Source of the DNA: Pyrinomonadaceae bacterium
GTDB taxonomy: Bacteria; Acidobacteriota; Blastocatellia; Pyrinomonadales; Pyrinomonadaceae
Assembly: GCA_036399155.1 (NCBI GenBank)
Contig: DASWNR010000065.1
Span: 1-61,407, forward strand
Direction: 5' to 3'
Length of the DNA stretch: 61,407 bases
Shown here: piece by piece, positions 1,890-24,763 of the stretch
Position numbering within the stretch: the stretch's first letter is position 1
How the letters are laid out: each line of letters opens with the position of its first letter
Notes under the pieces: generated by a model
Database searches by the model: none
What the model was told of the DNA's origin: nothing
What the model saw: the letters and a program-made list of their open reading frames with translations, nothing else
Translations under genes and position numbers: made by a program

Positions 1890-2170
1890 GCTCTTGGGTC
1901 AATCCTTTGTCAGTGGGAATCGGATGGATGGGTGATGCCGGAGTAGACTTCATCAACTTCTACGGGTTCAGTGCCGGGGAAGTCCCGAGGGCGTTCTTAC
2001 TTTCGGGCCTCATTCTAACACCCCCGTGCTCGGCAAACTCAAGCGACCCCGCCGCGCGCCCGCCGGACGTTGACACTGGCACGCCGCTGCATGATACTGC
2101 CGCCACCAAAAGCATTCCCGACGGCCATCCAAAAACACAGAGCGAGCAGACAAAAAGGAGAGACTGAGAC

Positions 2171-3415
2171 ATGAAGGGCAGTTCATTTCTAACCCTGGCG
2201 TTCTTAGCCCTCGCGGGTTTCGGCCTTCACACGGCGGCGGCGGCTCAGTTCCCGAGGCTTCCCAAGATACCTAAGCCGAAGGCGACCCCGACGCCGGCCG
2301 CCCAGCCGGCGGCCACGGCCGGCGACGCACCGCCGGCCGCCCAGCCGGCGGCGGCCGCGGCCGCGCCAGCCCCCTCCTCCGCCGCCCCGGCGCAGGGCGG
2401 GCCGACCATCGCCAAGGACTCCGTGCAGCTGACGGCCTTCACCTTCAACTCCTACAAGGGGAACTTCGACACATGGAGCTGGGCGCCGCTCATCACCTAC
2501 AGCGTCAACGGCCCCATCCCGAGCGGCGGCCAGCTCTACGTCGAATACACCGTGCCGGGCTCGCCGGCTGTCAAGTTCGACTGCGCCACCGAGGAGATGC
2601 CCGCCGACCGCTGGTGGAAGACCACATGCGGCGGCCGCGACGGCGTCCCCGAGGAGAAGGCGACGACCTACACCGGCCCCTTCAACTTCGCCATCAAGCT
2701 GCGGAACGAGCTGGCCGGCACCGACACGACCGTCTTCACCGGCAAGGCGAAGGTCGGGAAGGTGCACTCCAACGAGATCAAGACCGGCAAGTTCGCCAAC
2801 CACTTCGTCTACTACGTGGATCACGACTGGAACCTGCCCATCGGCTACGTCTACTACACGCCGGACGACCTGAACGGCTGGAAGAGGCCCATGCTCAACG
2901 TCACCTTCTGGGTGCGCGGCGAGGCTTACAAGCTCGACCCGCACCTCTTCTACAAGGGCGCGGAGGTGGGCCGCATCATGTACGAGGGCACGCAGGTCGG
3001 CAAGCCCAGCTGCGAGTCGGACGTGGATAACAACACCACCCATTTCGTGGACGAGAAGGACGCGCCGCAGAAGGCGAAGTGGGCGCGGGTGCGCTGCACC
3101 TTCAACAACGTCCGCGCCTGGGATACGTCGGACGCGGGGTGGGGCTTCGGGCCCCCGCACCTGATGGACAAGAACCCCGGCGAGTACGAGATGAAGGTGC
3201 TGTGGAATAACAAGCTGGCGCGGTCGGTCAAGTTCACCGTCCCCGCCGGCGGCAAGCTCGACACCGGCCTCGCCGCCTCGAACAAGCTCGGCAGCGACCG
3301 CCTCATCGTCCCCGTCGCCGTCCTCGGCGACCAGGACGGCGCGTGGGACAAGGCGGCGTGGAAGACCGAAGCCTTCTACGGCAACCCGCTGAACGGCTTC
3401 ACGCCCGCGCCTTAA
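2171..3415 (+). CDS. hypothetical exported protein (signal peptide, Ala/Pro-rich linker, beta-rich domain)
   Basis: N-terminus MKGSSFLTLAFLALAGFGLHTAAAAQ looks like a Sec signal peptide. It is followed by low-complexity PAAQPAA repeats. Amino-acid usage is coding-like and no family was recognised. Confidence 0.7.
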   Translation: MKGSSFLTLAFLALAGFGLHTAAAAQFPRLPKIPKPKATPTPAAQPAATAGDAPPAAQPAAAAAAPAPSSAAPAQGGPTIAKDSVQLTAFTFNSYKGNFDTWSWAPLITYSVNGPIPSGGQLYVEYTVPGSPAVKFDCATEEMPADRWWKTTCGGRDGVPEEKATTYTGPFNFAIKLRNELAGTDTTVFTGKAKVGKVHSNEIKTGKFANHFVYYVDHDWNLPIGYVYYTPDDLNGWKRPMLNVTFWVRGEAYKLDPHLFYKGAEVGRIMYEGTQVGKPSCESDVDNNTTHFVDEKDAPQKAKWARVRCTFNNVRAWDTSDAGWGFGPPHLMDKNPGEYEMKVLWNNKLARSVKFTVPAGGKLDTGLAASNKLGSDRLIVPVAVLGDQDGAWDKAAWKTEAFYGNPLNGFTPAP

Positions 3416-19798: not shown

Positions 19799-23206
<3,408 letters not shown>

Positions 23207-23352
23207 CTGGGGTTCTTTCTTGAGTAAAGAAGTCGGCCGACCGGGCCGGGAGCGGGCCGCCCCCGCGCTACGGGCGGCGGCCCCTTCGCGTTCGCATGCG
23301 CCACGCTTTACGCGCGCCGCGAACCGAGGGTTTCAATGACGTTGTTGACGAA

Positions 23353-23387
23353 GAAGGGCGAGCCGCGCCCAGCGCCGCCCGCCCTTC
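23353..23387 (-). terminator. possible terminator hairpin downstream of the split tRNA
   Basis: Minus strand reads GAAGGGCG-N19-CGCCCTTC followed by TTCGTC. The T-tract is weak, so this is tentative. Confidence 0.35.
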
Positions 23388-23440
23388 TGCTAGTTGTGAA
23401 TGCCCTCGCCCCGACTCGAACGGGGAACCAACGGATTATG

Positions 23441-24080
23441 CTTACCACTACGGCTTTCGCCGCCCCCGGTTGAAATGCCGCCGGGGTTTGTAGTCTGGAC
23501 TTTCCCTTCGCTTTACGCGTCTGCCATCAAGTCTCTACACCTTCCCCGCCGCGCGGGGCTTGGCTCGGGATTACCGTCCCGCTTTCGCGGCTTAGGCTTC
23601 CCCGAATTTGGCAGATTCTACAAGCGCACCTGAGACGAACCCGTCAGCGCCGGGACCCGAATGTGATACGCTCGCAACCCATCCCTGGAGGTCTTATGGA
23701 AAAGGTTTGCGTCGTCTGCGAAGCATCTCTTACCGGCAGGCAGACGGTCTTCTGCTCCCGCCGGTGTAAGAACTCCTCCACAAACAACAAACATCAGAAC
23801 TATGTTTCCCAGCAGCACCGCGGGCGACAGAGAAGGCAACGCCTGATTCACCAGAAAGGTGGCCGGTGCGAGCGGTGCGGTTACAGCCGCAACGAAGCGG
23901 CGTTGGCCTTTCATCACCTCGACCCGGCAAGCAAGTCCTTCCCTCTCGACATCAGACAATGCTCGAACGCCTCATGGAACGCGATTCTGGCCGAAGCGCT
24001 CAAGTGTCAACTCCTCTGCCTGAACTGCCACGCGGAGATTCATAATCCTGAATTTTCCACTTAGACCTGTCAAAGAACTG
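23441..24080 (-). ncRNA. group I intron (IC3-like) in the anticodon loop
   Basis: The minus strand contains CCAAATTCGGGGAAGCCTAAGCC, CCCGAGCCAAGCC and GAAGGTGTAGAGACTTGATGGCAGA. These parallel the P3/P4, P6 and P7 core of the Azoarcus tRNA-Ile intron as I remember it (CAAAUUCGGCGAAACCUAAGCG / GCCGAGCCAAGC / GAAGGUGUAGAGACUAGACGGCA). The 5' exon ends in U and the intron ends in G (23441). Candidate IGS GGUCU (24067..24063) pairs with exon GGACU and gives the U.G wobble. Confidence 0.85.
23696..24064 (+). CDS. HNH endonuclease (putative homing endonuclease), encoded antisense to the intron
   Basis: 122 aa: CVVC..FCSRRC zinc-ribbon-like N-terminus, then GGRCERCGY...LAFHHLDP...KCQLLCLNCHAEIHN, a canonical HNH/His-Me finger. 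ATG 23696 follows GGAGG at 4-nt spacing. The stop TAG 24062-24064 overlaps the candidate IGS. Confidence 0.85.
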   Translation: MEKVCVVCEASLTGRQTVFCSRRCKNSSTNNKHQNYVSQQHRGRQRRQRLIHQKGGRCERCGYSRNEAALAFHHLDPASKSFPLDIRQCSNASWNAILAEALKCQLLCLNCHAEIHNPEFST

Positions 24081-24139
24081 AGTCCGCTGCTCTAACCGAT
24101 TGAGCTACGAGGGCGTAGGTGTCAGCGGTGTGCGGGGGG

Positions 24140-24168
24140 ATTATAAGGTTCGGCCGGGGGCGTCGCAA
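24140..24168 (-). promoter_or_regulatory. sigma70-type promoter of the split tRNA(CAU) gene
   Basis: Minus strand reads TTGCGA-N17-TATAAT. The -10 element ends 25 nt before tRNA position 1. Confidence 0.6.
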
Positions 24169-24214
24169 GCGAGGCGATGTCGGGCGGCGAACCGAGGGTG
24201 ATGTTGTATTAAGT

Positions 24215-24763
24215 TCAGCCTTCGCCCTTCATCGCCTCTTTGACCGCCTCGATCTGTGCGAGGTGGCGGGATTCGTGTGCGCCGACGAAGAGGAGCCACT
24301 GGTAGAGGTTGAGCGGGCCCCAGGCGGGGTGCGGGAAGCGGAGCGCGTGTCCGTCGGCGCGCTCAAGCGCCGGGCGCAGGCCGTGGAGCGCGGCGCGCGA
24401 GTCGCGCAGGCGTCGGAGCGAGTCGGCGAGCGGCGTCGAGTCCGCGGGGCGGAGCCTTTCGGGCGCTTCGAACCTGGCGGCGCGGCTGCGCTCGACGAAC
24501 TCCTCGATGGAGACGGGCTCGAAGGCCGCGCCCTCGGCGCGCGGCGCGCCCGACTCCTCGGCCTTGCCCAGCAGCTTGCCGAGCAGCCCGACGACGTTGC
24601 CCTCGACTATCGAAAGGTGTTCGCACAGTTGCGCCGGCGACCACCTGTCCGGCGCGGGGCGGAAGCGCTGCTCGTCGTCGCTCAGCCCCTCGACCGCGCG
24701 GAGCAGTTGCCCGCGCACCTCGTCGATGTGCTCGTAGATTTCGCTGACGCTGTTGAAGTCCAT
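24215..24763 (-). CDS. DinB-family protein
   Basis: WSPAQLCEHLSIVEG ... LLFVGAHESRHLAQIE His triad pattern of DinB_2-type proteins. ATG 24763 is preceded by GAGAGGAG. Confidence 0.75.
   Translation of the reverse strand: MDFNSVSEIYEHIDEVRGQLLRAVEGLSDDEQRFRPAPDRWSPAQLCEHLSIVEGNVVGLLGKLLGKAEESGAPRAEGAAFEPVSIEEFVERSRAARFEAPERLRPADSTPLADSLRRLRDSRAALHGLRPALERADGHALRFPHPAWGPLNLYQWLLFVGAHESRHLAQIEAVKEAMKGEG

Follow-up and report, generated by a model that had tools for sequence, protein, structure and literature searches.

A predicted HNH homing-endonuclease gene lies antisense in the P1 loop of a group I intron that splits a bacterial tRNA(CAU) gene

In a contig of a Pyrinomonadaceae bacterium (DASWNR010000065.1; the window, that is, the whole stretch of 61,407 nucleotides that was analyzed), a tRNA(CAU) gene on the minus strand (24114-23401) is interrupted in its anticodon loop by a 640-nucleotide group I intron, as read directly from the sequence, and an open reading frame (ORF) for a 122-residue HNH endonuclease lies within this intron on the opposite strand. 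The best reading of the element is a homing-endonuclease group I intron of a bacterial tRNA gene, the novelty being that the gene is antisense and sits in the P1 loop. More specifically, we think it likely that this is a composite mobile element, in which tRNA(CAU) is interrupted between U33 and C34 by an Azoarcus-like group I intron that carries an antisense, predicted HNH homing-endonuclease gene in its P1 loop. A genome scan with one genome per species yielded 467 relatives of the HNH gene, of which the best 80 loci were kept (L001-L080). In the first 60 of these the plus-strand order is that of the window, namely 3' exon, intron core, ORF, about 17 nucleotides and 5' exon (L059 is cut off upstream). 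The roughly 60 species-level genomes with this antisense arrangement are mostly Pyrinomonadaceae (Acidobacteriota) and other Blastocatellia, and the arrangement is evolutionarily richer than a first-pass annotation of this DNA had supposed.

The 5' exon of the tRNA gene (24081-24114, minus strand; GCCCUCGUAGCUCAAUCGGUUAGAGCAGCGGACU) comprises the acceptor, D arm and anticodon stem, ends in GGACU33 and is conserved in the 60 related loci. The 3' exon (23401-23440, minus strand) begins with CAUAAUCCGU and runs to the discriminator A, reading CAUAAUCCGUUGGUUCCCCGUUCGAGUCGGGGCGAGGGCA as a whole; CCA is not encoded. When the exons are joined they form a normal cloverleaf with the anticodon loop CU-CAU-AA. 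The best matches of this spliced tRNA are E. coli genes annotated as tRNA-Ile, and therefore the gene is probably of the tRNA-Ile2 type.

The intron itself (23441-24080, minus strand; last nucleotide G) is defined by an Rfam match, by the conservation of its 3' end and by covarying helices P2-P9. The Rfam model Intron_gpI (RF00028) matches 23519-23617 on the minus strand with 45.4 bits and an E-value of 8e-10, covering model positions 48-158 only. The match falls short of the gathering score (50), since the covariance model is split by the ORF insertion; loci of the same type (L021, L040 and L081) score 52-57 bits across model positions 1-253. The catalytic core, P3-P9 (23441-23617, minus strand), is 92-94% identical to those of L001 and L003 and is supported, beyond the Rfam alignment, by covariation in P3, P5, P6, P8 and the terminal hairpin. 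The 3' end of the intron reads GGUAAG immediately before CAUAAUCC, with the terminal G as omega G, and a boundary of RG followed by CAUAAUC is present in all aligned related loci whose end is visible. RNAalifold found compensatory changes in 39 of 78 predicted pairs, with helices P2-P9 covarying. Judged from the sequence, the ribozyme core is intact, as are the U.G pair at the splice site and the terminal G, and self-splicing is predicted. The minus-strand tRNA and group I intron that the first-pass annotation had proposed are thus real.

An interrupted gene of this kind escapes standard annotation. On the whole window ARAGORN did not detect the split tRNA, Rfam at gathering score detected neither it nor the intron, and tRNA-Glu was the only tRNA reported by either; the intron was found with Rfam in E-value mode. 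Because both procedures overlook the split gene, automatic annotation would leave carrier genomes seemingly without a tRNA(CAU)/Ile2-like gene.

How the ORF is accommodated outside the ribozyme core is indicated by the pairing around the 5' splice site. The internal guide sequence is AUGGGUU (23676-23682, minus strand), as indicated by P1 pairing, by a compensatory change in L081 and by the minimum free energy (MFE) fold. It stands directly 5' of the P2 hairpin (23620-23675, minus strand), which shows double changes in 9 of 11 pairs and is returned by both RNAalifold and the MFE fold. The GGUU of the guide pairs with exon G30-U33, the splice-site wobble being U24081.G23679, and the preceding G pairs with intron nucleotide +1, which is C or U depending on the locus. 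The 5' strand of P1 (24079-24084, minus strand) accordingly consists of exon G30, A31, C32 and U33 together with intron nucleotides +1 and +2, both in an alignment model of P1, P1a, P1b and P2 and in the MFE fold. With this guide, P1 has five of five pairs in 59 of the 60 loci; 97.9% of alignment cells are paired, and the splice-site pair is UG in 27 of 28 aligned sequences. The distant copy L081 combines exon GGCU with guide GGGCU, which constitutes the compensatory change. The AUG of the guide can also pair with the CAU of the 3' exon (P10) in the window, with P10 complete in only 23/60 loci. On the plus strand, the guide lies 14-20 nucleotides upstream of the ORF's ATG.

Two further helices connect P1 to the ends of the ORF. 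P1a is formed by a 5' strand at 24063-24068, which includes GGUCU, and a 3' strand beginning AGACC at 23689-23694 (both minus strand); it has five of five pairs in 50/60 loci and appears in the MFE fold. Changes on both sides were seen in four of its five pairs, as illustrated by GGUCU/AGACC in the window (24067-24063 / 23694-23690), GAGACC/GGUCUC in L030, GAAAUC/GAUUUC in L040 and GGCC/GGCC in L028. P1b, likewise present in the MFE fold, pairs GUGGAAAA (24053-24060, minus strand) with UUUUCCAU (23696-23703, minus strand); as UGGAAAA/UUUUCCA it has seven of seven pairs in 35 of the 60 loci and six of seven in another 16. Its 5' strand is the antisense of the last ORF codons and its 3' strand the antisense of ATGGAAAA at the ORF start, which explains the conserved MEK start and FST-TAG end of the protein and the nearly invariant third positions of the last two codons, where third-position entropy drops to 0.19. 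Pairing in the combined P1/P1a/P1b/P2 model reaches 93.9%, with 16 double-change pairs, a result matched by 0 of 500 shuffles, and an unconstrained MFE fold of the window's 476-nucleotide RNA, whole ORF included, returns the same helices. Taken together, P1, its extension, P1a and P1b form a conserved, covarying stem of about 26 base pairs that joins the 5' splice site to the guide AUGGGUU and closes off an insert of 366 nucleotides. The stop codon of the ORF falls in the internal loop between P1a and P1b, with two bases overlapping P1a.

This structure differs from that of the first-pass annotation, which had the stop codon overlapping a guide sequence GGUCU (24067-24063) and the ORF in an extension of P2, between P1 and the P3-P9 core. 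GGUCU pairs fully with the exon in only 28/60 loci and fits just the window and the loci nearest to it. In the 28-sequence alignment the two pairs in its middle are disrupted in 11-12 sequences, and the splice-site U faces A in 14 and G in 10. Instead of covarying with the exon, the pentamer covaries with the segment 3' of the ORF, as the 5' strand of P1a. Since the supported guide is AUGGGUU, and since P1a and P1b bracket the ORF, the predicted structure places the ORF in the peripheral loop of P1 (L1), outside an intact ribozyme core. RNAalifold also paired exon GACU with the P7 strand AGUC, which we take to be an artefact because the program cannot draw the P3-P7 pseudoknot, and it lengthened P2 by UUGC/GUAG, in competition for U23677 and U23676 of the guide.

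A separate complementarity was noticed within the ORF region. The intron RNA at 24041-24048 holds GGAUUAUG, a perfect complement of the first eight nucleotides of the 3' exon (CAUAAUCC). The same segment is the antisense of codons CAT AAT CCT, for H-N-P of the HNH motif, and the synonymous changes that relatives carry there (GGGUUAUG, GGAUUGUG) retain the pairing through G.U. It could be a chance match or an additional exon-binding element.

The gene itself (23696-24064, plus strand; 122 codons from ATG to the TAG at 24062-24064) spans intron nucleotides 17-385, exactly where the first-pass annotation had drawn it, and both the HNH motif and the GGAGG ribosome-binding site named there are present, the latter as a Shine-Dalgarno-like sequence at 23687-23691 (plus strand), four nucleotides 5' of the ATG. 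A protein search returned 98 homologues, nearly all of exactly 122 residues and 55-86% identical. Across 27 sequences the HNH signature (C58xxC61, H73-H74, N91, C108xxC111-H112 and H116) is invariant or nearly so, its two CxxC pairs being zinc ligands, and the homologues also retain an N-terminal four-cysteine motif. Among 49 intact copies in the same genomic arrangement the median pairwise ratio of nonsynonymous to synonymous substitution rates (dN/dS) is 0.11, and entropy at codon positions 1, 2 and 3 is 0.66, 0.50 and 1.32, so that the third position varies 2-2.6 times more than the others. These codon patterns identify the plus-strand frame as a protein-coding gene under purifying selection. 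The protein matches PHROG 2255 (HNH endonuclease) with an E-value of 4e-21, and an AlphaFold 2 model (predicted local distance difference test score, pLDDT, 92) shows strand, strand and helix at residues 70-74, 104-108 and 109-116. The G+C content is 56% in the ORF (23696-24061), 61% in the intron core and 69% in the whole window, the low values being consistent with a foreign origin or with constraints on RNA and protein.

A simpler explanation would be that the plus-strand frame is non-coding, having stayed open by chance in a long structured intron insertion. A weak Pfam HNH match (E 0.011, below cut-off) and the failure to find a plus-strand promoter are in keeping with a chance frame. However, the low dN/dS and the excess of third-position entropy, the 98 database homologues and 467 genomic relatives, part of them free-standing, and the PHROG match together with a confidently modeled fold speak against it, and the homologues, dN/dS and PHROG match already refute it.

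Indications that the intron with its gene is mobile come from comparison of occupied and empty sites, as the first-pass annotation had envisaged. Metagenome contigs provided at least 120 alleles that share the anticodon arm and have no intron. Three of the intron-less loci (L104, L124 and L155) share the window's neighboring genes, and therefore empty sites exist at the orthologous locus; the element shows presence/absence polymorphism at the same site of the same tRNA gene. No ORF-less copy of the 33/34 intron turned up among the genome and metagenome loci scanned. Single carriers are metagenome-assembled genomes named Rhodothermales (L053, chromosome-level), Armatimonadota (L058) and Heliobacteriaceae (L021), in which the same intron and ORF sit in different tRNA backbones, binning errors being possible for such genomes. 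At least 49 of the ORFs in the 60 loci are intact 122-codon frames ending in TAG, and premature stops occur in five copies (L027, L048, L049, L052 and L060). The gene is thus not generally degraded where the intron is retained, and its homologues are repeatedly associated with introns, not exclusively free-standing; on both counts the first-pass interpretation holds.

In the mechanism that we favor, the 122-residue protein would recognize the anticodon-arm DNA of an uninterrupted tRNA(CAU) gene and cut or nick it there. Repair from an intron-carrying copy would then place the intron and its gene into the cut site (homing), and self-splicing would restore the tRNA. The element probably originated when an intron without an ORF took up an HNH gene that had been free-standing and associated with tRNA genes. 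The closest relatives of the HNH gene are usually antisense to tRNA genes.

Several results weigh against a homing element. At the level of the protein, the Pfam HNH model (PF01844) gives 16.3 bits against a cut-off of 21.4, and NCBIfam HlpB gives 16.3 against 130, both below threshold. A sequence search of the PDB returned sub-threshold HNH matches only, the top Foldseek matches in the PDB (Cap5 HNH, T4 endonuclease VII, Gme HNH and Cas9 HNH) are all HNH nucleases but have E-values of at least 0.2, and neither search gave a significant match to a solved structure. The family is a divergent branch that the Pfam and NCBIfam models do not capture. At the level of the RNA, P1 is almost invariant and shows no double changes among the 28 aligned sequences. 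As to expression, a search of the 300 nucleotides upstream of the ATG gave no sigma-70-like plus-strand promoter for the window and none for 58 of the 60 related loci, and a Shine-Dalgarno-like motif is present in only 24/60. As to descent, at 30-31 intron-carrying syntenic loci the identity of the HNH protein tracks that of the flanking proteins (Spearman 0.80-0.87), so that descent within the Pyrinomonadaceae has been mostly vertical. Furthermore, under a simple homing model the gene should decay once it is fixed, yet the majority of copies have stayed intact.

These observations on descent would suit a resident element that is no longer mobile and whose HNH protein is kept for a role other than homing, such as a benefit to the host, protection of the tRNA locus from competing elements or action on other targets. 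In addition to the correlation at the conserved locus, the ORF has remained intact under purifying selection though the flanking proteins have diverged to about 40% identity, and it has persisted longer than a simple cycle of invasion, fixation and decay predicts. A resident element is nevertheless an unlikely explanation in our view, given the intron-less alleles at the syntenic locus, the 5/60 copies that are decaying, the occurrence of the same element in other phyla and non-syntenic contexts, and the ties of the whole HNH family to tRNA genes and introns in many layouts, a pattern that fits a homing life style. An intact gene despite vertical descent fits repeated loss and re-invasion, or another selected role; re-invasion is possible because intron-less syntenic alleles exist.

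Under the homing-element reading, the antisense placement has consequences for how the gene would be expressed. A promoter-like site for the tRNA, TTGCGA-N17-TATAAT, is found at 24168-24140 on the minus strand, as the first-pass annotation had recognized. It has 10 of 12 matches against 0.1 expected in shuffles and is the only sigma-70-like site in 23150-24300. Downstream of the tRNA, a terminator-like hairpin (23356-23370, minus strand) is a weak candidate, as shuffled sequences give such sites too. Being antisense, the nuclease gene would escape the strong tRNA promoter, and its translation would not take place on the ribozyme RNA. It would need a plus-strand promoter of its own, probably a weak one. 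The antisense of J3/4-P3, TTGRCA, was considered as a promoter element and dropped, as no consistent -10 element stands at the proper spacing. The antisense layout would also keep ribosomes off the ribozyme RNA. Conflicts between translation and splicing in bacteria provide the context for this point (PMC3984707).

The opposite orientation could also have a regulatory meaning, in that the nuclease mRNA and the pre-tRNA or excised intron would pair, or their transcription collide, resulting in mutual control. Such coupling is compatible with a homing-endonuclease intron, and the two are not mutually exclusive. The sequence directly bears out the full complementarity of the two RNAs over 369 nucleotides, in the 5' part of the pre-tRNA intron, to which the first-pass annotation had drawn attention; the strong promoter-like tRNA site faces the ORF, and opposite orientation looks like a habit of the lineage (24/30 closest viral loci are antisense, and the gammaproteobacterial loci are head-to-head). 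On the other hand, no plus-strand promoter was found in the window or in 58/60 relatives, which argues against coupling, and the orientation could merely serve to avoid the tRNA promoter. More distant members of the family are co-oriented with tRNAs, one of them sense-embedded, and thus opposite orientation is not a family requirement. On balance we rate antisense coupling as rather improbable.

The wider HNH family provides the context in which the homing-element reading of the window is best understood. In L061-L080, tRNA(CAU) carries an ORF-less intron of 233-289 nucleotides after CAU (position 36/37); these loci come from Gammaproteobacteria, except for two contigs of bacterial appearance that were binned as Halobacteria. 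At most of them the HNH gene is free-standing and head-to-head with the tRNA, 89-136 nucleotides upstream of its 5' end (236 in L078). At L066 it lies 23 nucleotides downstream of the tRNA on the same strand, and at L074, too, the intron precedes the ORF on the ORF's own strand. A different layout is seen in L083, where a 47%-identical HNH gene is located within a group I intron of tRNA-Asn(GUU) in sense orientation, starting 16 nucleotides past the splice site (2585-3210). The public gene call for this locus fuses the tRNA 5' exon to the ORF as an N-terminal extension, and the 3' end of the ORF enters the P3-P6 core. In a neighbor-joining distance tree the embedded and the free-standing genes form separate clades; the rooting of the tree is not meaningful, and the split alone was used.

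Viral contigs contained 541 HNH relatives, with tRNA genes in 65 of the 79 loci kept. Thirty of the 79 have a tRNA(CAU) within 700 nucleotides of the ORF midpoint. In 24 of the 30 loci with the closest relatives every tRNA is on the strand opposite the HNH gene. Some more distant viral relatives adjoin tRNA-Ile(UAU) instead of tRNA(CAU), and others tRNA-Arg(UCU), tRNA-Leu(UAA) or tRNA-Asn(GUU) (L224, L242, L245, L247, L248 and L253). The anticodon loop that is targeted may therefore differ between branches of the family. At two viral loci (L212, 3180-3381; L216, 3234-3427) group I intron matches of 59 bits, above the gathering score, occur in or beside phage tRNA arrays near HNH relatives. All phage group I introns known by 2014 were in protein-coding genes (PMC3984707).

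The two contigs binned as a Halobacteria archaeon (L072 and L073) have a bacterial-type tRNA(CAU), a group I intron scoring 78-82 bits and a free-standing HNH gene in a layout near-identical to that of the gammaproteobacterial loci. Their archaeal label is probably a misbinning; a 2014 review listed no report of group I introns from Archaea (PMC3984707). In L073 a second tRNA 3' half (CCCCUUGGUCCCAGGUUCGAGUCAUGGCGGGCCCACCA; 2000-2060, minus strand) lies about 45 nucleotides downstream of the intron-containing tRNA, possibly as a relic of recombination or of an integration site. The same contig has a perfect TATAAT only six nucleotides before the ATG of the free-standing HNH gene (about 2478-2492, plus strand), which suggests that this mRNA is leaderless or nearly so. 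A separate TTCAAC-N16-TAGAAT, on the strand opposite the HNH gene, belongs to the tRNA.

A bolder proposal can be made from these layouts, which we regard as possible although doubtful. One HNH lineage may have specialized on tRNA anticodon-loop targets and be visible at several stages of assembly: free in phage tRNA arrays, free beside ORF-less tRNA(CAU) introns, and captured at least twice independently, antisense in the tRNA(CAU) 33/34 P1 loop and sense in tRNA-Asn, with the abundant pre-tRNA and excised intron RNA serving as a built-in antisense repressor of the nuclease mRNA. If true, such repression would explain both the opposite orientation as a lineage habit and the survival of an intact gene over long vertical descent.

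In the usual view, a mobile group I intron originates from the invasion of an ORF-less intron by an endonuclease gene that had been free-standing. To our knowledge, few natural intermediates of this assembly have been described, and those are in phage protein genes. Here, a single HNH family shows free-standing, antisense-embedded and sense-embedded layouts around bacterial tRNA introns, with hundreds of sequences that can be compared and put to direct biochemical tests. The antisense layout also raises the question of how such a gene is expressed and restrained.

The nearest known ribozyme is the Azoarcus pre-tRNA-Ile(CAU) group I intron (subgroup IC3), which likewise is small and bacterial and interrupts the anticodon loop of a tRNA(CAU) gene, with the guide directly followed by P2. 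The core in the window is very similar to what we take to be the Azoarcus sequence (AAAUUCGG..GAAGCCUAAG.., GCCAAG, GGUGUAGAGACU), and the position after CAU of the introns in L061-L080 is presumably also that of the Azoarcus intron (36/37). Context for this comparison is available elsewhere (PMC13168695). Unlike the Azoarcus intron, which lacks an ORF and interrupts the loop 3' of the anticodon (36/37), the window intron lies at 33/34 and has a P1 loop enlarged by 366 nucleotides with a gene on the opposite strand. A second relevant system is the intron of I-Ssp6803I, an enzyme of the PD-(D/E)XK type encoded on the intron's own strand; the source for this tRNA-fMet intron is reportedly Bonocora and Shub, 2001. 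The enzyme of the window, by contrast, is HNH and antisense. What the two share is a bacterial anticodon loop of tRNA(CAU) type split by a group I intron, in that case in cyanobacterial tRNA-fMet (PMC3984707).

Antisense homing-endonuclease genes are documented in group I introns of eukaryotic nuclear ribosomal DNA (rDNA), with P1 and P2 among their sites, and expression from the antisense strand has been demonstrated for Dir.S956-2 of Didymium iridis (PMC3679873). For bacteria, full-text literature searches turned up no published case of an antisense endonuclease gene in a group I intron, which is not proof of absence, and antisense or opposite orientation goes unmentioned in a review of bacterial group I introns from 2014 (PMC3984707). 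The remark in the first-pass annotation that antisense arrangements are rare was therefore fair, and the window holds the first bacterial endonuclease gene antisense to its ribozyme that our search brought up. Dir.S956-2 shares with the window an endonuclease gene opposite the ribozyme strand and in a peripheral element. Its enzyme is of the His-Cys box type and relies on eukaryotic mRNA features; Johansen et al., 2006 is reportedly the work linked with this antisense gene. Dir.S956-2 is eukaryotic and in nucleolar rDNA, while the window element is in a tRNA gene of a bacterium and encodes an HNH protein. The two are analogous, not related.

The viral HNH relatives can be compared with SegB and similar free-standing homing-endonuclease genes within phage tRNA gene clusters (PMC2330249). 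Like SegB they stand free among phage tRNA genes. SegB, however, is a GIY-YIG enzyme and has no intron, whereas the closest viral HNH relatives are mostly antisense to the tRNAs and often beside tRNA(CAU).

Finally, collaborative (trans) homing is known from F-CphI with the cyanophage psbA intron and from T4 mobE with the I-TevIII intron, and the model predicts later capture of the endonuclease gene by the intron (PMC3984707; PMC2790892; PMC6083498). The layout of L061-L080 resembles such pairs, in that a free-standing endonuclease gene, which may target the intron insertion site, adjoins an ORF-less intron. The window differs from a collaborative pair in having its endonuclease gene inside the intron and, by analogy, looks like such a capture. 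The known cases concern phage protein-coding genes, whereas those described here concern bacterial tRNA genes and, unlike the known cases, show one HNH family both in the layout before capture and, after capture, in an antisense and a sense layout.

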